Shown here piece by piece: positions 1 through 20,592 of a stretch of 64,000 bases of DNA (its first letter is position 1; every line of letters begins with the position of its first letter). The stretch comes from an uncultured bacterium. Its GTDB lineage: Bacteria; Fermentibacterota; Fermentibacteria; Fermentibacterales; JCC-6. Made by a program: the position numbers and the translations under genes. The stretch is from positions 930-64,929 of the forward strand of contig CAYREX010000006.1 of NCBI GenBank assembly GCA_964423505.1, in the 5' to 3' direction. The notes beneath the pieces are model-generated. The model saw nothing but the letters and a program-made list of their open reading frames with translations, was not told the origin of the DNA and did not search any database.

Positions 1-15
1 GGAAAGGAGAATGAA

Positions 16-423
16 ATGCAAGGGCTACTCAAATGGGTAATGATCATGATGATCAGTACAATCGTATTTGCTGGGGAGGTTTCGGACAGCGTAACCTTCA
101 ATACAGTTCAGAATGCGCCCACCGGTTTCACATCCTGGGTGTTCTACTGGTCTATGCCTGAGATTGATCCGGATGCTACCCTAGAGTACATTGTTCTCCA
201 ACCGGATGGAGATGAGTACTACCGCATGACGGTACCCGGTACTACTCCGGCAGGGCAAGGGATACGCTCAGATTTCTATGAGGGTTTCGCAGGAGGTAAC
301 CCTGAAGTTCTCTATGGCACTGACATTCAGATCATGTTCACGGTGGACAAAGGGACTATCCAATTCCTGGACGATGCATCGTATCACTTTGAATTCACGG
401 AAACTATTGATGCCATCAGATAG
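16..423 (+). CDS. Hypothetical exported protein (cassette 1), 135 aa
   Basis: ORF with RBS ggaaaggagaat preceding the ATG. Hydrophobic signal-like N-terminus MQGLLKWVMIMMISTIVFAG. No recognisable family. An attC-like element follows immediately. Confidence 0.5.
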   Translation: MQGLLKWVMIMMISTIVFAGEVSDSVTFNTVQNAPTGFTSWVFYWSMPEIDPDATLEYIVLQPDGDEYYRMTVPGTTPAGQGIRSDFYEGFAGGNPEVLYGTDIQIMFTVDKGTIQFLDDASYHFEFTETIDAIR

Positions 424-432
424 GGACTGCCG

Positions 433-507
433 AACAACTGCATGAACCATCTACGAGCGGAGCTGCTTGATCCAGGTGGTCGTAATGGTTATGCAGAGCG
501 TTGTGTG
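433..507 (+). repeat. attC-like recombination site (cassette 1 end)
   Basis: AACAACTGCATGAACCA...TGGTTATGCAGAGCGTTGTGT is an imperfect inverted repeat with unpaired bases; left end AAC, right end GTT. Highly similar copies at 1401-1476 and 2375-2448. Confidence 0.55.
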
Positions 508-657
508 GTAGGCACGGCGTCGGCTGAGAACAGAGAACAACAGGAAAACAGGCACATAGGAAATCGGGCCCAACGGACAGAAAAAGCCGCCGCCGTGAAG
601 AACAGAAAAACGGACAAATAGGGCAGAACGGACAGCAGCAGAGGAGACAGAGCCCAC
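508..657 (+). repeat. Conserved ~150-bp non-coding cassette, copy 1 of 3
   Basis: Purine-rich on the top strand (gagaacagagaacaacaggaaaacagg...aaaaagccgccgccgtgaagaacag). Bounded by attC-like sites on both sides. Near-identical copies at 1477-1625 and 2449-2592. Confidence 0.6.
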
Positions 658-731
658 AACCACAGCATGAACCAGTCGCGGAGCTGAACTCTTCGTCCTG
701 GCATCCACGCTGGTTATGCTGAGCGTTGACC
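658..731 (+). repeat. attC-like site (end of non-coding cassette 2)
   Basis: AACCACAGCATGAACCAG...CTGGTTATGCTGAGCGTTGAC, an imperfect palindrome ending in GTT. Confidence 0.5.
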
Positions 732-753
732 CTCAGAAAACGGTAGGGCGTTC

Positions 754-782
754 TTGACAAAGTGTAGCCAATAGGCTACACT
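754..782 (+). promoter_or_regulatory. Promoter with palindromic operator upstream of the higB-like toxin gene
   Basis: TTGACA at 754-759, a 17-nt spacer, then TACACT at 777-782. The perfect palindrome GTGTAGCC-AATA-GGCTACAC (762-781) overlaps the spacer and the -10. The ATG at 789 makes the mRNA near-leaderless. Confidence 0.5.
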
Positions 783-788
783 ATACAT

Positions 789-1079
789 ATGATAGAGATT
801 CGGAAGACCGAGGATTTCTCGAAGTGGCTTGATCGGCTGAGAGACATCCGTGCACGAGCACGCATTCTTGCCAGGATCAAGCGACTTGAATGCGGACTCG
901 TAGGTGATGCCAAGCCGGTTGGCGAGGGTGTATCAGAACTGCGGATCGACTACGGTCCCGGATACAGGGTCTACTTCAAGAAACATGGGAAGAACCTGGT
1001 TATCCTATTGGCCGGTGGTGACAAGCGAACACAGAGCAAGGATATTGAGAAGGCATTGCGCCTGGCGCGAGAGCTATAG
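789..1079 (+). CDS. higB: Type II toxin, addiction-module killer protein (HigB-like, RelE/ParE superfamily), 96 aa
   Basis: Translation DFSKWLDRLRDIRARARILARIKRLECGLVGDAKPVGEGVSELRIDYGPGYRVYFKKHGKNLVILLAGGDKRTQSKDIEKA matches the conserved killer-protein family pattern (...RL..G..GD.KPVGEGV.ELRI..GPGYR.YF...G..LVILL.GGDK.TQ..DI). Confidence 0.8.
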   Translation: MIEIRKTEDFSKWLDRLRDIRARARILARIKRLECGLVGDAKPVGEGVSELRIDYGPGYRVYFKKHGKNLVILLAGGDKRTQSKDIEKALRLAREL

Positions 1080-1089
1080 GAGAAGAACC

Positions 1090-1389
1090 ATGAGCAAGAC
1101 CAGAACAACTCGCTTCGAAATCGCGGAGCATCTTCGGACTCCTGAGGAAATGGCCGCATACCTTGAAGCTTGCCTTGAGGAGTCCAACGGTGATGCGGCT
1201 TTCGTGGCAAAGGCACTCGGAGATATTGCACGAGCAAAAGGAATGACACAGGTTGCTCGAGATGCAGGCCTCTCCAGAGAAAGCTTGTATAAGGCACTGT
1301 CGGGTGAGCGTACCCCTGGATTCGATACAATCCTGAAGGTAGTGCATGCCCTCGGGATGGAGCTGCACGCAGCTCCGCTTCATAACTGA
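1090..1389 (+). CDS. higA: Type II antitoxin, HTH addiction-module antidote protein (HigA-like), 99 aa
   Basis: ATG at 1090, 11 nt after the toxin stop. Translation FEIAEHLRTPEEMAAYLEACLEE...ALGDIARAKGMTQVARDAGLSRESLYKALSGERTPGFDTILKVVHALGM matches the antidote-protein family. Toxin-first gene order is typical of HigBA. Confidence 0.8.
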   Translation: MSKTRTTRFEIAEHLRTPEEMAAYLEACLEESNGDAAFVAKALGDIARAKGMTQVARDAGLSRESLYKALSGERTPGFDTILKVVHALGMELHAAPLHN

Positions 1390-1400
1390 GAAGAAGGGTC

Positions 1401-1476
1401 AACAACTGCATGAACCAGGCAACGGGGCAGGAGTGAACGATCATGAGTCCCGTGCTGGTTATGCAGAGCGTTGACG
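1401..1476 (+). repeat. attC-like site (end of higBA cassette)
   Basis: AACAACTGCATGAACCAGG...CTGGTTATGCAGAGCGTTGACG; same family as 433-507. Confidence 0.55.
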
Positions 1477-1625
1477 AGTAGGCACGGTGGCGTCTGAGAA
1501 CAGAGAGCAAGGAAACCGGGCACAAAGGAAATCGGGCCCATAGAACAAAAAAGCCGCCACCGTGAAGAACAGGAAATAGAAACCGGACAACAGGACAGCG
1601 GCAGAACAGAGGAGATAGTTTCGCC
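1477..1625 (+). repeat. Conserved ~150-bp non-coding cassette, copy 2 of 3
   Basis: Aligns by eye with 508-657 and 2449-2592, with a few substitutions and indels. Confidence 0.6.
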
Positions 1626-1698
1626 AACAATGGGCTGTAGCAGAATTGCGCCTGGTAGTGGCGATCGTCTCGCAATCAGCTAAGCCCAAGCGTTAGGT
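1626..1698 (+). repeat. attC-like site ending in the canonical core GTTAGGT
   Basis: AACAATGGGCTGTAGCAG...CAGCTAAGCCCAAGCGTTAGGT. Arms are imperfectly complementary. The right end matches the GTTRRRY core site exactly, 4 bp before the ATG at 1702. Confidence 0.6.
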
Positions 1699-1701
1699 GA
1701 T

Positions 1702-2376
1702 ATGGAATCGACTTGGTGGAGAGAGTTCGCAGAGAGGAAAATCCGTACTACCGCTTGCATTGCTGAGAATTGCCAAGGAACATATGGAGATGTTGTTCTC
1801 CTCTTATCCGCGGTGATTTCCGCAATGGCAGCAGAATGCTGGCCTGGACGATCAATTGACAAGAAACGCTATCTGCAGTTACTGGCTCAGTACGCACCCG
1901 CAACAAAAATGATCAGCACCCCAAGGCTATGTGCATTCCTGAGTTCCCAGAAAAAACATGACCAGGAGATGCGCATTCGCAACCAGTACCCGAACATCCC
2001 GAATGATGGTCGGATTGTACTCGGGCCTGAGATCGACCACAATGAGGATGAGATATTACGGATACAGGGACTAGATATCGATCTCTCAGATCTCAGAGAG
2101 TGCTCGTATGCAGCAATTCTTTATCGTGATCTGAGAACAAGTTACACGCACGAATACAAGATTGGTGATCATACAGATTGCATAAGGATGACCAGCTCGA
2201 CCGAGCCTTGTGTTTCGTACACAAACATGTTGGGGAAAAGCACTAGGCAGATCCACTTCCCATTGAGACTAATTGCGGATATCACTAAGCAGTGTGCGAT
2301 TTCAGTTGATCAGCTCAATGGGACACTGCCAAGGGAGCGGCCAGAGACTTGGTGGATTGACGGAGGGAACACCTAA
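1702..2376 (+). CDS. Hypothetical cassette protein, 224 aa, no recognisable family
   Basis: ORF starts 4 bp after the attC core. Its TAA stop lies inside the next attC, where ACCTAAC fits the RYYYAAC inverse core. No motif recognised. Confidence 0.5.
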   Translation: MESTWWREFAERKIRTTACIAENCQGTYGDVVLLLSAVISAMAAECWPGRSIDKKRYLQLLAQYAPATKMISTPRLCAFLSSQKKHDQEMRIRNQYPNIPNDGRIVLGPEIDHNEDEILRIQGLDIDLSDLRECSYAAILYRDLRTSYTHEYKIGDHTDCIRMTSSTEPCVSYTNMLGKSTRQIHFPLRLIADITKQCAISVDQLNGTLPRERPETWWIDGGNT

Positions 2377-2448
2377 CAACTGCATGAACCATCTACGAGC
2401 AGAGCTGATTGTCCTGGGTGGTCGTAATGGTTATGCAGAGCGTTATGG
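2375..2448 (+). repeat. attC-like site
   Basis: ACCTAAC-AACTG-CATGAACCA...TGGTTATG-CAGAGC-GTTATGG. The R''/L''...L'/R' architecture is visible, with one unpaired base. Confidence 0.6.
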
Positions 2449-2592
2449 AGTAGGCACGGCGGCGTCTGAGAACAGAGAACAGAGAAATCGGGCACATAGG
2501 ACAATCGGGCCCATAGAATAAAAAGCCGCCGCCGTGAAGAACAGAAAACGGACAACCGGACAACGGCAGCAGCAGAGGAGACAGAGTCCATA
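2449..2592 (+). repeat. Conserved ~150-bp non-coding cassette, copy 3 of 3
   Basis: Same element as 508-657 and 1477-1625. Confidence 0.6.
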
Positions 2593-2655
2593 ACAATCGA
2601 ATAGAGCAGACTGCTGGGCATTGATCAGGGTAGCAGCTCATTCGAAGCGTTATCT
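2593..2655 (+). repeat. attC-like site
   Basis: ATAACAATCGAAT...ATTCGAAGCGTTATCT; arms imperfectly complementary, AAC...GTT ends. Confidence 0.5.
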
Positions 2656-2678
2656 ATTAGAAGAATGGGGTACATTAG

Positions 2679-3488
2679 GTGAAGAAAATCCTCCTAAACG
2701 ATATTCTGCAAATGGGTCACTTGGACAAAGTGAAGATACGTTTTAACATGAACAATAAGGACATATGGAATCCGATTGAGTTGTTCAAATCCGGGGAAAT
2801 TGAAGAACTTCTAAATGGCCACTATTGGAACTATTCGAAAAAATCCTACAAGCATGGACAAATCACTGTGGGATTCATTCGCCTAGAGCAAGCTGACCTT
2901 TGGTTGCTCTTTCATGTTGGAGTGATTACGAAGGATCTTAACATTCTCAATGGTATCGGCTACGAGTACGAAACACTGCCTGAGTATGAGAAGTATCTTG
3001 GTCGACTTATCATTCGCTTCAAAAACAAGGCAACAAATCTGATTCGTAATGCAAAATCAGTAATTGATGATTGTGAAGTACTCCATATCCTTCCTAACAC
3101 CTTTGAAAATGATATCTTCCCTGGATATGATAAGGTAGACTTGTCTTGGAATGAGTTAAGTAGTGCAACAAGAAAAGAGGTATGGATAACAGCTTTGCAG
3201 AATCAAAAGGGCGTCTATCTGATCACCGATTCATCAAATGGGAAAATGTATGTTGGTTCCGCGTACGGAGATAGAATGCTACTTGGTCGTTGGAAGTCTT
3301 ATGCAAAGACAGGACATGCTGGCAATTCTGAGTTGAGAGATTTGAGCTTCGAGCATATCAAGGAGCATTTTCGTTTTTCAATATTGGAGATATTCAAGTC
3401 TACAACCGATGATAAAACAATACTTGGACGTGAGCAGTGGTGGAAACGAATTTTACTCACACGAGAATTTGGATACAACAGAAATTAA
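2679..3488 (+). CDS. Cassette protein with a C-terminal GIY-YIG nuclease domain and an uncharacterised ~175-aa N-terminal domain, 269 aa (GTG start)
   Basis: C-terminal KGVYLITDSSNGKMYVGSAYGDRMLLGRWKSYAKTGHAGNSEL...FRFSILEIF...REQWWKRILLTREFGYN fits the GIY-(9-11)-YIG, R, H, E, N nuclease signature. Codons are very AT-rich, giving the lowest GC in the window. Confidence 0.7.
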   Translation: MKKILLNDILQMGHLDKVKIRFNMNNKDIWNPIELFKSGEIEELLNGHYWNYSKKSYKHGQITVGFIRLEQADLWLLFHVGVITKDLNILNGIGYEYETLPEYEKYLGRLIIRFKNKATNLIRNAKSVIDDCEVLHILPNTFENDIFPGYDKVDLSWNELSSATRKEVWITALQNQKGVYLITDSSNGKMYVGSAYGDRMLLGRWKSYAKTGHAGNSELRDLSFEHIKEHFRFSILEIFKSTTDDKTILGREQWWKRILLTREFGYNRN

Positions 3489-3516
3489 TAAATTAGGTTT
3501 AGAGAAAATCTTAGAT

Positions 3517-3592
3517 AACAACAAAATGCAGCAGTACTGCGCTAGAAAATGAGAGTCAAGTTTTCGCAGTCTGCTGATTTTGGATGTTCTGC
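3517..3592 (+). repeat. attC-like site (AT-rich variant)
   Basis: AACAACAAAATGCAGCAGTACTGCG...CGCAGTCTGCTGATTTTGGATGTTCTGC. Arms are complementary with indels; AAC...GTT ends. Confidence 0.55.
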
Positions 3593-3606
3593 AGAAAGAA
3601 ATGGGA

Positions 3607-3641
3607 TTGACGAATGTATATGATGGAGATATACATCTAGC
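3607..3641 (+). promoter_or_regulatory. Promoter/operator of brnTA cassette
   Basis: TTGACG at 3607-3612, a 17-nt spacer containing the inverted repeat GTATAT..ATATAC, then -10 TATACA. The ATG at 3642 follows closely. Confidence 0.45.
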
Positions 3642-3944
3642 ATGGTGAAACCTCGCGACCGACTGAAAGAATGCACAGGGTTCGAGTGGGATGATGGGAA
3701 TGCGACCAAGAACTGGGAGAAGCACGAAGTATCGCAGTCTGAGTGCGAGCAGGTGTTCTTCAACAGACCACTCATCCTCCGAAGGGATACGAAGCATTCA
3801 GATCGTGAAGCCAGGTATTACGTTCTTGGCAATACCGATGCCAAGCGGCTTCTCTTCGTGGTTTTCACGATACTAGGTGAAAAGATCAGAGTAATATCCG
3901 CAAGGGACATGACCGAGCGGGAAGAGCAGAGGTATCAGAAATGA
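3642..3944 (+). CDS. brnT: BrnT-family type II toxin (DUF497 ribonuclease toxin), 100 aa
   Basis: GFEWDDGNATKNWEKHEVSQSECEQVF...RYYVLG...LLFVVFT...IRVISARDMTEREEQRY matches the BrnT pattern FEWD..K...N..KHG..F.E....F......R..A...ER. Confidence 0.8.
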   Translation: MVKPRDRLKECTGFEWDDGNATKNWEKHEVSQSECEQVFFNRPLILRRDTKHSDREARYYVLGNTDAKRLLFVVFTILGEKIRVISARDMTEREEQRYQK

Positions 3945-4225
3945 GGAAGATGAAAAAGATCCCGAGATTCAAGACGGAGCAGGAGGAAAGGGAGTTCTGG
4001 CGAACTCACGATTCCAGTGAGTATCTCCACTGGGACAATGCTGCCGAGGTCACCCTGGCCAAGCTGAAGCCCTCTACTAAGACGATATCGCTGCGTCTAC
4101 CGGAATCGATGATTGAGGAACTCAAGATCCTCGCAAACAAGCAGGACATCCCTTACCAGTCGCTTCTGAAAGTGTTTCTTGCAGAGCGACTTGATGAGGA
4201 ACTTGAGGCGATCAGAGCACATTGA
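3941..4225 (+). CDS. brnA: BrnA-family antitoxin (CopG/RHH-like), 94 aa
   Basis: ATGA overlap with brnT. KTISLRLPESMIEELKILANKQDIPYQSLLKVFLAERL matches the BrnA C-terminal ITLRL....YQ..L pattern. Confidence 0.8.
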   Translation: MRKMKKIPRFKTEQEEREFWRTHDSSEYLHWDNAAEVTLAKLKPSTKTISLRLPESMIEELKILANKQDIPYQSLLKVFLAERLDEELEAIRAH

Positions 4226-4228
4226 TGC

Positions 4229-4305
4229 AGAACAAGCGCCTGCAGCGGCATTACGGTCTGGGGTAGAGGAAGGCCATCGCAATCCGCTGAGCCTATGTGT
4301 TCACC
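4229..4305 (+). repeat. attC-like site (second sequence family)
   Basis: GAACAAGCGCCTGCAGCGG...CCGCTGAGCCTATGTGTTCACC; imperfect inverted repeat. A similar element lies at 5506-5580. Confidence 0.5.
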
Positions 4306-4358
4306 AGATTGACATAAACGAAAATACGTACGATATTCCGTACGGATGGAGGTGCGGG

Positions 4359-4601
4359 ATGACCAACGTAACTGTCACGGAAGCAAGGAAGAGGCTGTAC
4401 AAGCTGCTGGATGAGGTTGCACAGTCTCATGAACCTGTGCAGATCGCCGGCAAGCGGAACTCGGCTGTTCTTGTCGGGGAAGAGGACTGGAGGGCGATCC
4501 AGGAGACACTCTATCTGACCAGTATTCCTGGCATGCGGCAGTCGATACAGGAGGGCATAGCCACTCCGGTAGATGAATGTGACGAGGAGCTTGACTGGTG
4601 A
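4359..4601 (+). CDS. yefM: YefM/Phd-family antitoxin, 80 aa
   Basis: MTNVTVTEARKRLYKLLDEVAQSHEPVQIAGKRNSAVLVGEEDWRAIQETLYL is the classic Phd/YefM fold signature. RBS ggaggtg upstream. A TTGACA promoter (4309-4314) with a CCGTACGG palindrome also lies upstream. Confidence 0.8.
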   Translation: MTNVTVTEARKRLYKLLDEVAQSHEPVQIAGKRNSAVLVGEEDWRAIQETLYLTSIPGMRQSIQEGIATPVDECDEELDW

Positions 4602-4861
4602 CATGGCGGATCGTGTTCACCAAACAGGCAAGAAGAGATGCGAAGAAACTGGCCAGTTCAGGTCTGAGAGATAAGGCGGAGATCCTGCTCCAGCTGCTTT
4701 CAGATGATCCCTTCAGAACTCCGCCGCCCTATGAAAAACTGATTGGTGACCTGGCTGGTGCCTGTTCAAGGAGAATCAATATCCAACACAGGCTTGTGTA
4801 CCAGGTTCTTCAAGATCAGCGAACCGTCAAGGTCCTGCGAATGTGGACCCATTATGAATGA
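4598..4861 (+). CDS. yoeB: YoeB/Txe-family toxin, 87 aa (GTG start overlapping the yefM stop)
   Basis: ...LAGACSRRINIQHRLVYQVLQDQRTVKVLRMWTHYE matches the YoeB/Txe motif SRRI...HRLVY.V. Confidence 0.8.
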   Translation: MTWRIVFTKQARRDAKKLASSGLRDKAEILLQLLSDDPFRTPPPYEKLIGDLAGACSRRINIQHRLVYQVLQDQRTVKVLRMWTHYE

Positions 4862-4866
4862 TGGTG

Positions 4867-4942
4867 AACAACTGCATGAACCAGGCAGCGGGGCGGAGCT
4901 GATCTAACGTGTATCCTGTGCTGGTTATGCTGAGCGTTCTGC
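4867..4942 (+). repeat. attC-like site
   Basis: AACAACTGCATGAACCAGG...CTGGTTATGCTGAGCGTTCTGC. Confidence 0.55.
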
Positions 4943-4956
4943 TGTAAGATAGGAAC

Positions 4957-4985
4957 TTGACAGTGCCCTACATTGTAGCTACGAT
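4957..4985 (+). promoter_or_regulatory. Promoter/operator of second brnTA cassette
   Basis: TTGACA at 4957-4962, a 17-nt spacer with the palindrome CTACA-T-TGTAG, then TACGAT at 4980-4985. Confidence 0.5.
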
Positions 4986-5011
4986 ATGCACATTAAAGCA
5001 CTACATTTCGA

Positions 5012-5275
5012 ATGGGATCCCAACAAGGAACTCAGAACCTCGAGAAGCACGGAATCACATTCAAGGAAGCAAGCAGTGTTTTCTATGACGAATGGGCGGT
5101 TGAGTTCTACGATGATGAGCATTCGGAGTGGGAGAACCGATGCCTGATGCTCGGCCTCAGTGCTCGACTCCGGTTGCTCCTCGTCTGTCATTGCAGCAGA
5201 GAGGAAGAGTCGGTGATCCGGATCATCTCCGCCCGGAAAGCGACAGAGAATGAAGCTAGGCAGTACCGGAGGTGA
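5012..5275 (+). CDS. brnT: BrnT-family toxin paralog (DUF497), 87 aa
   Basis: LEKHGITFKEASSVFYDEW...NRCLMLG...VIRIISARKATENEARQY is the BrnT signature. It is divergent from the 3642 copy, so it is not a recent duplicate. Confidence 0.75.
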   Translation: MGSQQGTQNLEKHGITFKEASSVFYDEWAVEFYDDEHSEWENRCLMLGLSARLRLLLVCHCSREEESVIRIISARKATENEARQYRR

Positions 5276-5279
5276 AACC

Positions 5280-5495
5280 ATGAAGGACGAGTACGATCTC
5301 TCGAAGATGAAATCCCGTAGGAATCCCTATGCCAAGCGCCTGAAGAAACAGATCACGCTTCGCCTGCAGCCGGAGATCATCGAGTACTTCAAGGCCTTGT
5401 CAGAGAAAATCGACATACCTTACCAGAGTCTGATCAACCTATACCTGCTGGATTGCGTGAATCATCATCGTGAACTGAAGATGGACTGGACATAG
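5280..5495 (+). CDS. brnA: BrnA-family antitoxin paralog, 71 aa
   Basis: RBS ggagg upstream; KKQITLRLQPEIIEYFKALSEKIDIPYQSLINLYLLDCV. Confidence 0.75.
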   Translation: MKDEYDLSKMKSRRNPYAKRLKKQITLRLQPEIIEYFKALSEKIDIPYQSLINLYLLDCVNHHRELKMDWT

Positions 5496-5505
5496 AAGAG
5501 AGGGC

Positions 5506-5580
5506 AGAACAAGCGGCTGCTGCGGTATCGCGCAGGGGTAGGTAGACCAGGGCGCAATCCGCTGAGCCTTCATGTTCGCT
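5506..5580 (+). repeat. attC-like site (second family)
   Basis: GAACAAGCGGCTGCTGCGG...CCGCTGAGCCTTCATGTTCGCT. Confidence 0.5.
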
Positions 5581-5598
5581 CCCATAACGGAAGGACGT

Positions 5599-5630
5599 CT
5601 TGACGTTATGACGTTATGGCTACATGATTC
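5599..5630 (+). promoter_or_regulatory. Putative promoter with tandem direct repeat operator
   Basis: TTGACG at 5599-5604 followed by an ACGTTATG-ACGTTATG tandem repeat; the -10 is unclear. The downstream RBS gaaaggagaat-ATG is identical to the one before the 16..423 ORF. Confidence 0.35.
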
Positions 5631-5651
5631 CTCTGGAAGGAAAGGAGAATC

Positions 5652-5885
5652 ATGTCTGATCTGACGAAAAGGGCTACTGTCTACCTTGATCCTGCGCTAC
5701 ACCGGGCACTGCGACTCAAGTCCGTAGAGACTTCAAGATCCATATCGGAACTGATCAACGATGCCATTCGAGAAGAACTGGCAGAGGACGCGGATGATCT
5801 GGCCGTCTTCCGTGCACGGATTGACGAGCCCACCGTAACGTTCGAGGCCTTCGTTGAAGGACTGAAGCGTGATGGCAGGCTATAG
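5652..5885 (+). CDS. Ribbon-helix-helix antitoxin (CopG/RelB/ParD-like), 77 aa
   Basis: RATVYLDPALHRALRLKSVETSRSISELINDAIREEL is an RHH DNA-binding motif. It overlaps the downstream toxin gene. Confidence 0.7.
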   Translation: MSDLTKRATVYLDPALHRALRLKSVETSRSISELINDAIREELAEDADDLAVFRARIDEPTVTFEAFVEGLKRDGRL

Positions 5886-6129
5886 GATTCTTATCCGGAA
5901 ATCGGTTCGGAAGGATCTTGATGGAATCCCGAAGAAGGATGTGCAGCGAATCGTCAAGGCAATCAGCAGTCTAGCCGAGGATCCGCGGCCGAGGCAATCC
6001 AAGAAGTTATCCGGAGAAGAGAAGTACAGGCTTCGGTGCGGATCTTACCGGGTGCTCTACGAGATTCTGGACAAAGAGCTGGTTGTGTACATCGTTCGAG
6101 CCCGGCATCGTAGAGACGCATATAGATAG
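5872..6129 (+). CDS. RelE/ParE-family type II toxin, 85 aa
   Basis: YRILIRKSVRKDLDGIPKKDVQRIVKAISSLAEDPRP...YRLRCGSYRVLYEILDKELVVYIVRARHRRDAY matches the RelE/ParE fold pattern. Confidence 0.75.
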   Translation: MAGYRILIRKSVRKDLDGIPKKDVQRIVKAISSLAEDPRPRQSKKLSGEEKYRLRCGSYRVLYEILDKELVVYIVRARHRRDAYR

Positions 6130-6135
6130 AGAGCG

Positions 6136-6180
6136 AACAACAGCATGCAGTAGGCAACCTGCTGATGCTGAGAGTGTCGA
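6136..6180 (+). repeat. Degenerate terminal attC-like element at the array/core junction
   Basis: AACAACAGCATGCAGTAGG..CCTGCTGATGCTG is a partial palindrome. No clean GTT right end. The GC-rich core sequence begins just after. Confidence 0.35.
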
Positions 6181-6280
6181 CTCGCTTGACCACTGGCGTG
6201 ACATCCGGTCCGGAGCTCGAGAGGTCTGTGGGTACTCATCGCCGGCGACGGATGGAGGCGGTCCTGAGGACCGCTGCGCT

Positions 6281-6790
6281 TCAGCGCTTGTAGCCTATCC
6301 TGTGGAGAAGCTCTATGCGGTTCTGGCGGTCCTCGTCTATCTCCACCGCCTGGGGTGGCTCGCCGTCTATCACGCCGAGGACGCCTCCGCCCTGGTCGGT
6401 CCTGGCCCTGATGACCTGGAGCGGGTTGGCGGTGGCGCAGAAGATGCGGCAGACCTCCTGGGTCTGCTTGATGCGGTTCAGGACCTGGATGGGGTAGGTC
6501 CCGTGGAGGACGATGAGGAAGGTGTGGCCGCAGGCGAGGTCGAGGATGTTCCTCTCGGCTATCTGCCGCAGCTCCAGGTCGGTGCCGTCGCTCCGTACCA
6601 GCCTGGGGCCGGAGGCCTCGGCGAAGGCGATTCCGAAGGCCGCGCCGGGGACGGCGGTGGCGATGGCCTCGTAGAGGTCCTCGACGGTCTTGATGAAGTG
6701 GGACTGGCCGAGGATGACGTTGCAGCCCTCGGGGAAGTCCAGCGGGACTACATCCAGGTCTATCGTGCCGGTCGTCTCGATTCCGTTCAT
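6281..6790 (-). CDS. Adenosine-specific kinase-like protein (DUF355 family), 169 aa
   Basis: Size and overall pattern resemble the small adenosine-specific kinase family. RBS ggaggag upstream. The assignment is tentative. Confidence 0.4.
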   Translation of the reverse strand: MNGIETTGTIDLDVVPLDFPEGCNVILGQSHFIKTVEDLYEAIATAVPGAAFGIAFAEASGPRLVRSDGTDLELRQIAERNILDLACGHTFLIVLHGTYPIQVLNRIKQTQEVCRIFCATANPLQVIRARTDQGGGVLGVIDGEPPQAVEIDEDRQNRIELLHRIGYKR

Positions 6791-6809
6791 GTCTCCTCCG
6801 CGGGTGCTT

Positions 6810-8228
6810 CTAGTAGCGCCTGCGCTTCCTGGCCGAGGGGATGCCCAGGTCGGCGCGGTAGTTGGCCACGGTCCGGCGCTTGACCTCCATGCCCGCCTCC
6901 GCTAGGAGCTCGGCGAGCTTCGCGTCGGAGAGCGGGGCCTTCTTGTCCTCGTCCTCTATCAGCATCCTGAGCTCCTCCTTCACGGTCCTGCTGGAGACGG
7001 TGCCGCTCTCGGCGGGCACGCCCCGGGAGAAGAAGAAGCGCATCTCGTGTATGCCCTTGGGCGACTGGACGTACTTGCCGTTGATGGCCCGGCTTATGGT
7101 GGACTGGTTGTAGCCCAGGGCGTCGGCGACGTTCTGGAGGGTGAGGGGCCTCAGGTCCTCTATGCCGTTCTCGAAGAAGCCGGCCTGGTAGTCCGCCAGG
7201 AAATCCCCTATGCGGGTGACCGTCTCCTGGCGCTGCATGATGGAGCGGATGAACCAGGAGGCGCGCTGGAACTTCTTCTTGACGTACTCCCTGGCGTCGT
7301 CTGAGGAGCTGGGGGACTCCAGTATGCGTCGGTTCCTGGCGGAGATGGAGAGGGTGGGGAAGCGGTTGTCGTTCAGGGTGGCGACGAACCTGTCCCCCAC
7401 CCTGGTGATGATGATGTCCGGGATGACCGCGGCGTTGCTGCCGGAGTGGAAGATTCCGCCGGGCCAGGGGTTCAGCCGGGAGACGGCGTCCAGCGCCTCC
7501 TGGACCCGCTGGGGGGTCTCCCCCAGGGCCTCGGCAATGGCCCTTATCCTGTGCTCGGCCATCTCGTAGAAGTAGTCGGAGACCATCCTGCGCTCCACGC
7601 TGCCCTCGTCGTAGCCCAGCCGCTCCAGCTGCAGGTCCAGCGCCTCGGAGACGGTGCCGGAGCCGACGCCTACCGGGTCCATCTCCCTGACCACCTCCAG
7701 GGCCCTGCGTAGCAGCTCCCTGTCCCCCTCCCACCCGGCCTCCAGCTCGTACTCCGGGAGGGAGAGCAGGCCGTGGTGGTCCAGGGAGTAGACGACGTAG
7801 ATGACAGCCTCCTCCAGGTCCCTGCGGAGGTTCAGGTCGTAGACCTGCTCAAGCAGGTGCTCGTAGAGGGTCTTCTCGGCCACCGGCTCCGGGGTCCAGG
7901 GCTCGTCGTCCTCGCTCCAGGTGGCCGAGGGGCCCTCGCCGGTGTGCTCCTCTATCTTCCGGAGGATGTCCAGCGGGTCGCTCTCCTCGCTGTCGCTCCT
8001 GGAGGGCTCCTCGTCCCAGTCGCTCTCCTCGGCCTCCGCCTCGGTCTCCTGGGTCTCCTCCCGCTCCTGCTCCAGTAGGGGGTTCTCCTGGAGCTCCTGG
8101 GAGATGAGGTTCTCCAGCTCCTGAGAGGGGAGCTGGAGTATCTCCAGGGCCTGGCGTATCTTCTGGGTGAGGACCAGCTTCTGGGTCTGGGCCAGCCTGG
8201 CCTGCTGCTGAAGCTTCATCCTCGGCAT
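6810..8228 (-). CDS. rpoN: RNA polymerase sigma-54 factor RpoN
   Basis: C-terminal RpoN box RRTVANYR, an HTH and a core-binding region. Start placed at MPRMKLQQQARLAQTQKL, the conserved N-terminus. The upstream Arg/Gly-rich extension of the ORF is rejected. Confidence 0.9.
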   Translation of the reverse strand: MPRMKLQQQARLAQTQKLVLTQKIRQALEILQLPSQELENLISQELQENPLLEQEREETQETEAEAEESDWDEEPSRSDSEESDPLDILRKIEEHTGEGPSATWSEDDEPWTPEPVAEKTLYEHLLEQVYDLNLRRDLEEAVIYVVYSLDHHGLLSLPEYELEAGWEGDRELLRRALEVVREMDPVGVGSGTVSEALDLQLERLGYDEGSVERRMVSDYFYEMAEHRIRAIAEALGETPQRVQEALDAVSRLNPWPGGIFHSGSNAAVIPDIIITRVGDRFVATLNDNRFPTLSISARNRRILESPSSSDDAREYVKKKFQRASWFIRSIMQRQETVTRIGDFLADYQAGFFENGIEDLRPLTLQNVADALGYNQSTISRAINGKYVQSPKGIHEMRFFFSRGVPAESGTVSSRTVKEELRMLIEDEDKKAPLSDAKLAELLAEAGMEVKRRTVANYRADLGIPSARKRRRY

Positions 8229-8230
8229 CT

Positions 8231-8965
8231 CTAGAGCCTGAACCTCTCTCCCAGGTATATCTTCCTCGCCTCCGGGTCCTCCGCCAGCTCGGTGGCGGAG
8301 CCTGAGATGAGAATCCTCCCGTCGTACATGATATACGCCCTGTCGGTTATCTCCAGGGTCTCCCGGACGTTGTGGTCGGTGATGAGTATGCCCAGCCCCT
8401 TCTCCCTGAGGCCGCCGACGATGGACTGTATGTCGGCGACGGCTATGGGGTCTATGCCTGCGAACGGCTCGTCGAGGAGCAGGAATGCCGGGTTGGTGAC
8501 CAGCGCCCTCGCTATCTCCACCCTCCTGCGCTCGCCGCCGGAGAGGGTGTAGGCCTTCTGGGTCCTGACCCGCTCTATGCCCAGCTCCCCCAGGAGCTGA
8601 TCGCACCTCCGCCTCCGCTCCCTGCGGCCCAGGCCGGTGGTCTCCAGGATGCTCATGAGGTTGTCCTCGACGGTCATCTTGCGGAAGACGCTGGACTCCT
8701 GCGGGAGGTAGCCTATCCCGAGCCTGCAGCGCCTGTACATGGGCAGCCTGGTTATCGGCCTCTCGTCCAGGAAGACCTCACCCTCGTCCGGGCGGATGAA
8801 GCCTACTATCTGGTTGAAGGTGGTGGTCTTGCCGGCGCCGTTCGGACCTAGGAGGCCGACCACCTCCCCCCTGGCGACGGAGACGGAGACCCTGTCCACC
8901 ACCGCCCTGCGGCGGTAGCGCTTCACCAGGTCGCTCGTCCTGAGAACCCTCGGCCCTTCCGGCAT
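8231..8965 (-). CDS. lptB: LPS export ABC transporter ATP-binding protein LptB
   Basis: Walker [12 protein letters not shown], signature [15 protein letters not shown], and a position immediately upstream of rpoN. Start at [13 protein letters not shown]. Confidence 0.9.
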
Positions 8966-17087: not shown

Positions 17088-18818
17088 ATGAGACTTGCTG
17101 CGGTATTGGCTCTCGCCGTTCTCGCCATGGCGGCGGCGGACACCGTCCTGTCGAGGGTGAACGACGCCCTCGAGGCCGGTGAGATAACGACCGACCAGGC
17201 TGTCCGCTACCTGTGGGACAGCATCCACGACAGGAGCTCGCTTCCCGCCGACCTCGCCGAGGGTGCGGTGGAGGTACCCTGCGGCACTGCCACCATGGAC
17301 AGGATATCCGTCCTCCTCGACGACTGCACCGTTCCGGTCCGCGAGGAGATGCTGGACATCCTCTCCAGGCCTGACGTCGGCGACCCGGAGTACACCTACG
17401 ACACCCCCGACGGCAACTTCAAGATCCACTGGACCGACACCGGCATCAACGCCACCACCCAGAACTGGGTGGAGACCATAGGCGAGGGCATGGAGTACGC
17501 CTGGGAGCAGGAGTGCAACGTCCTCGACTGGGACGAGCCGCCCTCGGACCTGGGCCTCGGCGGCGACGAGAGGCTCGACGTCTACATCCTGCACCTCGAG
17601 GGGGGGGTCATCGGATGGTGCTCCAACGCGGGCAACCCGCCCGACCCGAGCACCCCCGAGAACGACTACGCCAGCCACATAGCCATGAGCAACAGCGAGA
17701 GCTGGGGCACCCTCCAGATACAGTCCACCTGCGCGCATGAGTTCAAGCACGCCATCCAGAACGGCTACGAGGCCGCCGAGCCTAGCTGGTTCAAGGAGAA
17801 CTGCGCCACCTGGATGGAGTACATGGTCGGATACCCCACGTACGCCTCCTACCTCCACGGCGGCGACAACTGTCTCCGCAGGCCCTGGTACGACATCAGG
17901 ACCATGGACGAGGGCCTCTACGAGTACGGCGCTACCCCCTGGCCCATGTACATGGCCGAGAGGTGCTCCGGGAACGAGACAGTCAGGCTCGTCTGGGAGG
18001 AGGCCGCCTCGGTGGTCGGCGCCGATATAATGGCGGCGATAGACAGGGCCGCCCAGGCGGAGGGCATGAGCTTCATGGAGTGGCTCGCAGAGTACGCCGC
18101 CTGGAGGTGGTTCACCGGCAACAACGCCAGCGACAACTACTACCCGATAGGGGAGTGCTCCCTCTGGACTCCGGGTCCCTACACCTTCGCCTACCACACC
18201 TTCGACGCGGCCGACCTGCCGGTCAGCGGCGACGAGGGCGTCTACAGGCCGGAGACCTACGGCCACCACTGGATATGGGTTGACGTCAGCGGCTTCTCCG
18301 ACTGGATAACCTTCGACTTCGACGGCCGGGACAACTTCCCCTGGCACGTGGGGGTCATCTCCACCAACGCAGACCACACGACCACCCAGTTCCAGTGGCA
18401 CGAGGTGGACAACACCGGCGCCACCATATCGCTCGGCGCCGCGACCGAAGGGTGGGACGACGTGGTCTTCTACGTACAGCCCACCTACGAGACCACCCTC
18501 TACATGACCTACGACTTCACCATCGAGGCACAGACCGGCGTCGGGAGCGGCCCCGCCTTCGACATCGAGATGACGCCTGCCTCCAACCCGATTGCCAGCG
18601 GCCAGGCGATTGACGTCAGCATCCCCACCGCCGGCCGGACCACCCTGAACGTCTACGACATGAGCGGACGGATGGTGCAGAGCATCTACTCCGGCCAGCT
18701 CCCGGAGGGCGAGAGCAGCCTTGTCTGGGACGCCGGGAACCTCTCCTCGGGCACCTACTTCCTGATGCTGAGCGCGCCGGGCGGCGGGCTCACCAGCCAG
18801 GTCGTCCTCTCCAACTAG
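17088..18818 (+). CDS. Secreted HEXXH zinc metallopeptidase with T9SS-type C-terminal sorting domain, 576 aa
   Basis: Signal peptide, HEFKH zinc-binding motif, and a C-terminal ~70 aa LNVYDMSGRMVQSIYSGQLPEGESSLVWDAGNLSSGTYFLML...VVL resembling a T9SS/FlgD-Ig-like sorting domain. RBS gaggagg upstream. Confidence 0.65.
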   Translation: MRLAAVLALAVLAMAAADTVLSRVNDALEAGEITTDQAVRYLWDSIHDRSSLPADLAEGAVEVPCGTATMDRISVLLDDCTVPVREEMLDILSRPDVGDPEYTYDTPDGNFKIHWTDTGINATTQNWVETIGEGMEYAWEQECNVLDWDEPPSDLGLGGDERLDVYILHLEGGVIGWCSNAGNPPDPSTPENDYASHIAMSNSESWGTLQIQSTCAHEFKHAIQNGYEAAEPSWFKENCATWMEYMVGYPTYASYLHGGDNCLRRPWYDIRTMDEGLYEYGATPWPMYMAERCSGNETVRLVWEEAASVVGADIMAAIDRAAQAEGMSFMEWLAEYAAWRWFTGNNASDNYYPIGECSLWTPGPYTFAYHTFDAADLPVSGDEGVYRPETYGHHWIWVDVSGFSDWITFDFDGRDNFPWHVGVISTNADHTTTQFQWHEVDNTGATISLGAATEGWDDVVFYVQPTYETTLYMTYDFTIEAQTGVGSGPAFDIEMTPASNPIASGQAIDVSIPTAGRTTLNVYDMSGRMVQSIYSGQLPEGESSLVWDAGNLSSGTYFLMLSAPGGGLTSQVVLSN

Positions 18819-18888
18819 CCAGCCGATTCAAGAGGCGGGGCGGGCAGCCGCCCGTCCCGCCCTCCGACAAACGAAGAGGAAGGAGCCC

Positions 18889-20592
18889 ATGAAGGCTACC
18901 GTACTGCTTGCGGCGGCTCTGGCCCTGGCGACGGGTACCGTCGCGGCCGACACCTCCATGCAGCGGATAATGGACGCTCTGGAGGAGGGCAGGCTCGACG
19001 CCGAGTCGGCGTCGGAGCTGCTCGTGCTCAGCGTGACCGACCCCTCCGCCCTTCCCGGAGAGTACGTCGAGGGGACCGAGCCGGCCCCCAGCGGCACCCC
19101 GGCCATGCTCCAGGCCTACAGGCTCAACCCGGACATGAGGGCCAACAGGCCTAATCTCAGCGGTCCGGAGTACACCCTCACCTCCCCTGACGGACACTTC
19201 CTCGTCCACTGGACCGACCAGGGGGCCGACGCCACCAATCAGTCTTACGCCGAGGGCATAGCCGAGGCCGCCGACTACTCCTGGCAGGTCGAGTGCGACG
19301 AGATGGGCTTCTTCGAGCCGCCGCCCGACGCCGGGGTGGGAGGCAACGACCTCTACGACATCTACATCATGAACATAGGTCCGCTGGGATACACCAGCGG
19401 CGCCGGCGAGTTCCAGCCGCCGGACAGCACCCACGACTGCAGCGCCAGCCACATCGTCATGTGCAGGGGCCTCCAGACCGGGCAGCGCAACTGCACCGTC
19501 TCGCACGAGTTCGCCCATGCCATACAGATGTCCTACGACTACAACGAGCCCATCTGGTTCATGGAGAACTGCGCCGTCTGGGCGGAGGAGCAGGTCTACC
19601 CGGAGGTGAACGACTACGTCAACTACCTCCACGGCGGCGACAACCCGCTCCGCAAGCCCTGGTGGGACATAAGGGACAGCGGCGGCAGCCTCTACCACTA
19701 CGGTGGGGTGCTCTGGGCGATGTACATGTCGCAGAGGCTGGACGACACCGACGTCATCCGGCAGGTCTGGCAGTACTGCGCCGACACCAGGGGCATGAAC
19801 ATGATGGAGGCCCAGGAGGACATGTTCGCCGACCACGGCATGCTCTGGGAGGACGCCTTCATGGAGTACGGCCTTTGGCGCTGGTTCACGGCGGGCAACT
19901 GGTTCTCCGGCTGCGGCCTGTACTTCGACGAGGCGCCTCTCTGGACTCCCGGTCCCTACGTGTTCTCCTACCACCAGATAAGCTCCCTGCCCGCCACCGG
20001 CGACGAGGGAGTCTACTTTCCGGAGAGGTTCGGCATAGCCTGGATACAGGTCGATCTGACCGACTACCAGGACGGCTGGGTCAAAATGGACTTCGACGGC
20101 CGCGACTACTTCGAGTGGAACCTCGGGGCCATCATGTGGGACGAGGGAGAGGACTGGCAGTTCGCCTGGTACGACTGCGACGGGACCACCGGCGACAAGA
20201 CCGTCTCGGTCGACGCCTCCGGGTGGGACTACGTGGTCTTCTTCCCCGCCTTCATCTCCGAGTCCAGCCTCGACCACACATACGACTTCGAGATCACCTA
20301 CGAGAGCGGCGCCCCCGGCGGGGAGACCCCGCGGGACATATCCGTCGCTCCCGCCTCCAACCCGGCGCGTCCGGGGACCGAGCTGAGCTTCTCGGTGCCG
20401 GCCGCCTGCAGGGCGACCCTCCTCGTCTACGACGCATCCGGCAGGGTCGTCGACTCCCTCTTCGACGGCGAGGTGGCCGCCGGCAGCCACAGCGTGAGCT
20501 GGGAGGCCGAGGGGCTCTCCACCGGCTCCTACTTCCTCACCCTCCATGCCGGCAACGCCGCCACCGGGACAAGGGTGGTCCTCACCAGGTAG
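18889..20592 (+). CDS. Paralogous secreted HEXXH zinc metallopeptidase with T9SS-type C-terminal domain, 567 aa
   Basis: Collinear with the upstream protein (TSPDGHFLVHWTDQGADATNQSY..., HEFAH motif, same C-terminal domain). Confidence 0.65.
   Translation: MKATVLLAAALALATGTVAADTSMQRIMDALEEGRLDAESASELLVLSVTDPSALPGEYVEGTEPAPSGTPAMLQAYRLNPDMRANRPNLSGPEYTLTSPDGHFLVHWTDQGADATNQSYAEGIAEAADYSWQVECDEMGFFEPPPDAGVGGNDLYDIYIMNIGPLGYTSGAGEFQPPDSTHDCSASHIVMCRGLQTGQRNCTVSHEFAHAIQMSYDYNEPIWFMENCAVWAEEQVYPEVNDYVNYLHGGDNPLRKPWWDIRDSGGSLYHYGGVLWAMYMSQRLDDTDVIRQVWQYCADTRGMNMMEAQEDMFADHGMLWEDAFMEYGLWRWFTAGNWFSGCGLYFDEAPLWTPGPYVFSYHQISSLPATGDEGVYFPERFGIAWIQVDLTDYQDGWVKMDFDGRDYFEWNLGAIMWDEGEDWQFAWYDCDGTTGDKTVSVDASGWDYVVFFPAFISESSLDHTYDFEITYESGAPGGETPRDISVAPASNPARPGTELSFSVPAACRATLLVYDASGRVVDSLFDGEVAAGSHSVSWEAEGLSTGSYFLTLHAGNAATGTRVVLTR

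Follow-up and report, generated by a model that had tools for sequence, protein, structure and literature searches.

A UzuA-family gene in an integron cassette of an uncultured Fermentibacterota bacterium and its candidate role as a modification-dependent nuclease

The Uzume defence system consists of one protein, UzuA (Millman et al. 2022). This protein was annotated as 'GIY-YIG nuclease' and two genes were tested (Millman et al. 2022, Table S2), of which that of Bacillus sp. FJAT-27231 (IMG 2638179248; SG175) was marked 'v' and 'verified' for anti-phage activity (Millman et al. 2022, Tables S2 and S16); its product is called the verified UzuA below. In the reviews searched, the mechanism of Uzume was described as unknown or poorly understood, and no paper connecting Uzume with type IV restriction was found in the literature searched. 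CMoRE/PD-T4-3 (PDB 9U75 and 9U7U) is a GIY-YIG type IV restriction endonuclease for 5-hydroxymethylcytosine (5hmC) and glucosyl-5hmC (PMC12923530), and the modular combination of a sensor and a nuclease is a hallmark of modification-dependent enzymes (PMC12191111; for CMoRE, PMC12923530). Here, we analysed a gene at 2679-3488 (+ strand) in a stretch of 64,000 nucleotides (nt) from an uncultured bacterium of the Fermentibacterota (assembly GCA_964423505.1, contig CAYREX010000006.1, positions 930 to 64,929). This whole stretch is referred to as the window, and positions are given within it. The gene encodes an N-terminal domain followed by a GIY-YIG nuclease domain and was compared with these systems.

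We lean slightly towards the explanation that the locus is a horizontally acquired integron cassette in a high-GC host, carrying one UzuA-family gene whose product would be a modification-dependent (type IV-like) nuclease. A preliminary description of this DNA, made from the letters alone, had proposed a new single-protein immunity architecture. A single-gene defence function built from a sensor and a GIY-YIG nuclease is well supported through the UzuA family, but the architecture is not new, having been named since 2022 and being covered by existing PADLOC models.

The UzuA-family gene and its cassette

The open reading frame (ORF), taken from the ORF listing and the PADLOC UzuA matches, was intact over 269 codons, from the GTG at 2679 to the stop codon ending at 3488. 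The NCBI record starts at an internal ATG and gives a product of 246 amino acids (aa) (P0001), leaving 2679-2747 out of that call. Because residues 4-23 of the 269-aa product were conserved across homologues, and because the Logan assembly protein P0271 was called at 269 aa, the GTG at 2679 is the likelier start and is favoured over the 246-aa call.

The 269-aa product matched both PADLOC models for UzuA along nearly its whole length. With PDLC03974, aa 2-269 aligned to positions 36-310 of the 310-position profile (E 3.1e-61, 205.5 bits), and with PDLC03973, aa 4-269 aligned to positions 3-278 of 278 (E 1.1e-54, 183.9 bits). The verified UzuA scored 177.2 and 255.8 bits on these two models, respectively. 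The window protein reached the DefenseFinder/PADLOC thresholds for UzuA, and aa 1-172 alone still matched both models (E 6e-15 and 7.7e-11). In pairwise comparison, the window protein was 39-41% identical to the verified UzuA across aa 146-269, and 28% identical to the UzuA of B. cereus B4080 across aa 17-269. These matches indicate that the window protein almost certainly belongs to the UzuA family.

The GIY-YIG nuclease domain occupies aa 176-269 (3204-3485, + strand). Aligned to I-TevI, the catalytic positions Y180, Y191, R204, E252 and N267 were all present; across near and remote homologues they and Y208 were either invariant or conserved to 90% or more. The preliminary description had read a complete GIY-YIG signature here; its tyrosines, arginine, glutamate and asparagine stood, but the histidine did not, since the position of I-TevI His31 is held by the invariant tyrosine Y208. 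A tyrosine at this position is known from UvrC-type domains. The histidine that had been meant is probably H213, which lies in a conserved GHxGN motif. The GIY motif itself reads GVYLI and has no second tyrosine of the GIYxY form. Ahead of the domain, aa 141-175 (3099-3203, + strand) form a linker that extends the nuclease module on its N-terminal side; the alignments showed a conserved FPGY...LS..L motif in it. F147 of this linker was invariant across the divergent family. The linker aligned with the verified UzuA and was missing from P0173, a protein in which the N-terminal domain is fused to an HNH nuclease (see below).

GIY-YIG domains are also found in selfish endonucleases, and we considered whether the protein is a homing-type enzyme promoting its own spread. 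Weak matches of this kind were obtained through the catalytic domain only (TIGR01453 with 38.9 bits, phrog_314, and PADLOC HEase), and the TIGR01453 score lies below the cut-off of 56.05. The domain order is the reverse of that in I-TevI-type enzymes, whose GIY-YIG domain is N-terminal (PMC3664794). Pfam matched only GIY-YIG-type domains and, weakly, an AbrB-like domain, so that no known homing-endonuclease DNA-binding module was detected. Moreover, the gene lies outside any intron or intein, and attC recombination explains its mobility. A homing function is highly improbable and the least probable of the explanations weighed here; assignment to the I-TevI type was rejected on the reversed domain order, the sub-cut-off TIGR01453 score and the restriction of the matches to the catalytic domain.

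The gene resides in a genuine integron cassette, of which it is the only ORF between the two attC recombination points. The cassette spans 2650-3586 (937 bp, + strand). Its left boundary is set by the attC of a preceding cassette without an ORF (2588-2655, + strand), where recombination occurs between G and TT of R' at 2649/2650. Its own attC lies at 3513-3592 (+ strand), with the corresponding G and TT of R' at 3586/3587, and was recognised by its hairpin, by the alignment of ten sites and by the covariance model. The bottom strand of this site folded into an imperfect hairpin with bulged, extrahelical bases (-18.6 kcal/mol, z -4.7), and the site has AAC and GTT cores with the recombination point in GTT. 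The consensus fold of the ten sites contained 18 base pairs, 12 of them with compensatory changes, and unpaired positions within the stem. The covariance model was trained on the ten sites of the window array and is host-specific; it gave 68.1 bits to the site at 3513-3592, which is itself a training member.

The base composition agrees with the view of a foreign acquisition in the preliminary description, which had also called this the region of lowest GC in the window. The GC content was 39.0% for the ORF and 38.4% for the cassette, and the five lowest 810-nt windows in the 64 kb all begin at 2701-2741. The first 6.2 kb averaged 49%, in contrast to 69.3% for the host region at 6201-64000, with the step near 6200.

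The distribution of the homologues was then considered. At E<=1e-3, 2516 homologues were retrieved, and the best 120 were full-length with 64-80% identity. The best 80 loci in species-representative genomes (61-69% identity) were mostly from Bacteroidota, with others from Cyanobacteria, Desulfobacterota, Campylobacterota, Planctomycetota, Vibrio, Marinomonas and a metagenome-assembled genome of Methanolobus. The homologous genes were AT-rich in every host sampled, with a mean GC of 33% vs 39% in the flanks. Of the records with such a gene, 431 were of plasmids (Klebsiella, Enterobacter, Bacillus and lactic acid bacteria) and two were of Klebsiella phages; a 'Bacteriophage sp.' record without annotation matched in part. 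The homologues stand free on plasmids, chromosomes and cassettes and not within introns or inteins.

No conserved partner recurred beside these genes: in 38 loci, the two nearest genes on each side fell into 149 Pfam families. The survey of homologue context suggested in the preliminary description did bring up some defence genes among the neighbours, namely SoFic, PD-Lambda-2, restriction-modification (RM) and a methyl-directed restriction enzyme (mREase), but no neighbour was conserved across the 38 loci. A cognate methyltransferase was present neither in the cassette nor recurrently beside the homologues; a single locus had a type III methyltransferase. This distribution fits a mobile, stand-alone defence gene. 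From its family, the window protein probably has a defence function, with anti-phage activity of this particular copy being predicted.

Some of the homologues may be carried by cassettes as well. With default filters, the window-trained attC model detected a single site across the 80 homologue loci, and absence elsewhere was not counted against cassettes. With filters off, suggestive same-strand attC-like sites were seen in two of the five loci searched. In an uncultured Desulfobacterium, one such site lies directly 3' of the homologue (L005:9010-11409), and in Marinomonas pollencensis a series of them follows 3' of the gene at cassette-like spacing (L080:8863-11523 and 18312-18996). Repeats of 90-300 nt lie on either side of the two homologues. 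Together with the attC-like sites this suggests that these genes too reside in cassette arrays with repeated non-coding units like the array of the window. Defence genes in integron cassettes are an already established theme, and the window gene taken alone adds a further copy of a defence gene already catalogued. The locus documents Uzume as integron cargo in an array of a poorly studied candidate phylum. In Marinomonas and Desulfobacterium, Uzume is probably such cargo as well.

The N-terminal domain and candidate mechanisms

The N-terminal domain (aa 1-140; 2679-3098, + strand) is predicted to be beta-rich and possibly forms a PUA-like (EVE/YTH/ASCH-like) reader. Residues 1-175 gave no match in Pfam, NCBIfam or PDB sequences, which bears out the earlier remark that the first ~175 aa resemble nothing recognisable; in Pfam, EVE, YTH, ASCH and SRA all remained unmatched, and the domain did not turn out to be a known DNA-binding module of a housekeeping enzyme. 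A Foldseek search of the domain model against PDB returned no significant match. The weak fold matches were to YTH, the EVE domain of THYN1 bound to 5-methylcytosine DNA, ASCH, VcaM4I, AbaSI, PvuRts1I and the N-domains of McrB. CMoRE was also on the list for the N-domain alone and, because no other GIY-YIG structure was among these matches, its match is most likely to the CMoRE sensor domain. An independent full-length model again recovered EVE, YTH, ASCH and McrB-N, ranked below the GIY-YIG matches, and riboflavin-kinase barrels scored alike. A PUA-like fold is a hypothesis suggested by this weak structural similarity.

The N-terminal domain was found with other nucleases. A profile search with this domain retrieved 467 cluster representatives, most of them with GIY-YIG. 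The metagenomic protein P0173 (271 aa) joins a UzuA N-domain to a canonical HNH domain (PF01844, E 1.6e-12). P0260 (metagenomic, 492 aa, with an extra middle region) joins it to HNH_2 and matched the PADLOC model mREase_IV, 'Type IV methyl-directed restriction enzyme' (E 3.2e-7). In a third metagenomic protein, P0139, the C-terminus has a D..EVK motif, a sub-threshold match to NOV_C (E 0.04) and no PDB match; it is a possible, unconfirmed PD-(D/E)XK nuclease. The nucleases are of classes used by modification-dependent enzymes, with GIY-YIG in the window protein and HNH in P0173 and P0260, and the N-domain, as a candidate sensor, is combined with them in modular fashion. In two further proteins, P0153 and P0267, the UzuA N-domain stands at the C-terminal end after long acidic regions; these may be truncated.

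Since this candidate reader is exchanged among unrelated nucleases and is without a methyltransferase partner, the preferred mechanism combines a reader of a modified base with a GIY-YIG cutter. The N-domain (aa 1-140) would act as a DNA reader whose PUA-like, base-flipping pocket accommodates a modified base that is present in phage DNA and absent from host DNA. It would position the C-terminal GIY-YIG domain (aa 176-269), which would cut the foreign DNA by the one-metal mechanism. This mechanism is established for the GIY-YIG superfamily. UzuA would then be a stand-alone, methyltransferase-less type IV-like restriction endonuclease with the domain order of CMoRE/PD-T4-3 reversed. Modification-dependent restriction as the mechanism is put forward tentatively, with our confidence falling somewhat short of even, and both the fold class of the N-domain and the dependence on modification are predictions. 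We hold slightly more doubtful the wider proposal that the N-domain represents a highly divergent, hitherto unrecognised branch of PUA-like modified-base readers, shuffled among GIY-YIG, HNH and possibly PD-(D/E)XK nucleases, with Uzume as a family of type IV restriction enzymes.

The main rival is an abortive-infection nuclease, in which the N-domain would sense a cue of infection instead of a mark on phage DNA and set the GIY-YIG domain free to cut both host and phage DNA non-specifically. Such a cue might come from a phage protein, from an unusual nucleic-acid structure or from a free modified nucleotide that infection releases. Uzume works through one protein and is described as being of unknown mechanism, and the weak fold match fits a small-ligand binder and a DNA reader alike. 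PUA-family domains can bind free nucleotides as danger signals, as PUA-Cal-HAD binds m6-dAMP (PMC12871103). On the other hand, the fusion partners of the N-domain were three different kinds of small nuclease module and, among the matches listed, no other effector types, which fits direct targeting of DNA better. CMoRE, the closest characterised analogue, restricts directly and not by abortive infection (PMC12923530), and no evidence of oligomerisation or of regulatory domains was seen. We consider an abortive mode rather unlikely and less probable than the proposed reader-and-cutter mechanism.

Several points weigh against the reading of the locus as a cassette for a modification-dependent defence nuclease. 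The first ~105 residues could not be aligned by sequence with the verified UzuA; depending on the comparison, alignment started at about residues 106-146. When the family profile was compared with the verified UzuA by hhalign, only the C-terminal 125 columns aligned, and a broader hidden Markov model reached residue 115 of the verified protein and no further; the window protein appears to belong to a UzuA subfamily whose reader end differs from the verified example. The UzuA of B. cereus B4080, a full-length aligner, is marked 'x' in Table S2 (Millman et al. 2022), which we take as no defence. Within the N-domain, model confidence was low for aa 28-51, overlapping the conserved GQYWNY motif (aa 47-52), and the divergent alignment showed no clearly conserved aromatic cage. 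Finally, the cassette shows no promoter of its own and is at least the seventh in the array, so the gene may be poorly expressed. Gene cassettes usually lack their own promoter. A scan of this one for sigma-70-like promoters found 4 sites vs 3.1 expected, none of them between 2650 and 2679.

With no promoter-like site upstream beyond chance, with the cassette far from the presumed Pc end and with one of the two tested family members giving no defence, the gene might be silent or non-defence cargo, either as an unexpressed reserve cassette or as a repair or recombination nuclease unrelated to phages. Against this, the ORF is intact with all catalytic and family-conserved residues kept, although its GC content differs by 30 points from that of the host, and the family is carried by plasmids and other mobile elements and not by conserved housekeeping loci. 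We consider this explanation improbable.

The mechanistic lead for Uzume, based on weak structural similarity and domain shuffling, is the only part of this analysis with some novelty. The comparative work yields a concrete proposal for how Uzume may act, namely through a reader domain common to unrelated nucleases and similar to the sensors of modification-dependent restriction enzymes. If true, new modification-specific nucleases of the type used in epigenetic mapping could come from the family, and Uzume would be a group of type IV restriction enzymes that plasmids and integron cassettes have carried into many phyla.

The cassette array and its neighbours

At least 11 cassettes make up the array, which lies wholly on the + strand and extends from beyond the 5' end of the window to a degenerate attC (1-6181). 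Ten attC sites of 68-80 nt, with an AAC core at the 5' side and a GTT core at the 3' side, were located on the + strand at 429-506, 654-731, 1397-1476, 1622-1698, 2371-2448, 2588-2655, 3513-3592, 4227-4305, 4863-4942 and 5504-5580. The eleventh, degenerate site at 6132-6181 was found by the covariance model without being in its training set (27.9 bits, E 2e-4). It has GTGTC instead of GTT and coincides exactly with the rise in GC content to that of the host. The integron integrase was not located: the array leaves the window at its 5' end, the other contig retrieved (7.2 kb, via rpoN) stops at the array, and neither a look-up of the exact protein P0001 nor an exact-match scan of metagenomes returned anything. 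A complete integron and an integrase-less attC cluster fit equally.

The cassette was indeed found with its own attC amid toxin-antitoxin (TA) modules, as the preliminary description had it. A Pfam-type scan of other cassettes identified pairs of Gp49/HI1420, BrnT/CopG-antitoxin, Phd/YoeB and RHH/ParE, and assigned no family to two ORFs. TA modules were counted in five of the 11 cassettes, one of them (5012-5495) from translations only; this is a BrnT/BrnA-like pair and the second in the array. The cassettes at 3587-4299 and 4937-5574 thus both carry apparent BrnT/BrnA-type pairs, and their attC sites (4227-4305 and 5504-5580) are of the same subtype. The two ORFs without a Pfam family at E<=0.01 lie at 16-423 (135 aa) and 1702-2376 (224 aa); as judged by eye, the 135-aa product begins with a signal-like, hydrophobic stretch.

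The position of the UzuA cassette among five TA cassettes raises the question of an addiction function, in which the nuclease would stabilise the array like its neighbours, and an uncontrolled nuclease can be toxic, as is the CMoRE 4A mutant (PMC12923530). Within the 937 bp of the cassette there is no further ORF to serve as antitoxin, no partner gene was conserved at the 38 homologue loci, and no TA model was matched. The addiction function offered in the preliminary description finds no support and is very improbable, less so only than homing. Assignment to a type II TA module was rejected on the single ORF and the missing TA family match.

Three ORF-less cassettes (501-725, 1471-1692 and 2443-2649) have in common a purine-rich conserved element of ~150 nt, with three different attC ends. 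In the element, a long-range stem of 10 bp (CACGGCGGCG...CGCCGCCGTG) has a compensatory change in one pair, and GGGC/GCCC form an inner hairpin. Its copies stand directly 5' of coding cassettes, namely those of the Gp49/HI1420 TA pair, the 224-aa ORF and UzuA. An Rfam scan of 1-8000, the element included, gave no match. It may be a regulatory, small RNA or promoter cassette.

The end of the array adjoins genes of the host, namely rpoN and a member of the adenosine-kinase family (PF04008), which lie on the - strand (6281-8606). The host sigma-54 (RpoN) is 51-64% identical to proteins of Candidatus Fermentibacteria, Aegiribacteria and Sabulitectum, the nearest named relatives, and thereby indicates a probable host in the Fermentibacterota. 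Two long ORFs at 6083-6883 (+) and 6787-7734 (-) overlap these genes in other frames; their products are Gly/Arg/Pro-rich and of low complexity, and they look like high-GC artefacts and not genes.

Comparison with known systems

The closest described system is the verified UzuA. Like it, the window protein is the product of a single gene of ~270-290 aa, with an uncharacterised N-domain plus GIY-YIG at the C-terminus, associated with mobile elements. In contrast to it, the window protein could not be aligned pairwise over its first ~105 residues, so that the target specificity may differ; the gene is cargo of an integron cassette in an uncultivated host of high GC, and it belongs to a very tight subfamily, with 61-80% identity across many phyla.

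CMoRE shares with the window UzuA the layout of a single-protein defence, in which a GIY-YIG domain is combined with a separate sensor domain, a candidate one in UzuA, and there is no methyltransferase partner. The nuclease comes first in CMoRE and last in UzuA, however, and UzuA, with GVYLI, is without the GIYxY motif. The sensor domains are unrelated at the sequence level, and PADLOC gave no PD-T4-3 match for the window protein. Membership in CMoRE/PD-T4-3 was rejected on the reversed order, the GVYLI motif without the second tyrosine and the absent PADLOC match.

Homing enzymes of the I-TevI type differ from UzuA, whose nuclease is C-terminal, in which no typical homing DNA-binding module was detected and which has no intron or intein context. 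The fusions of PUA-superfamily domains with nucleases, such as EVE-HNH in VcaM4I, the SRA-like AbaSI and PvuRts1I and the N-domains of McrB (PMC6765204; PMC7897488), resemble the UzuA family in combining reader and nuclease modules and in including HNH fusions. Unlike these fusions, the UzuA N-domain has no Pfam match to EVE, YTH, ASCH or SRA, and its dependence on modification is a candidate property.
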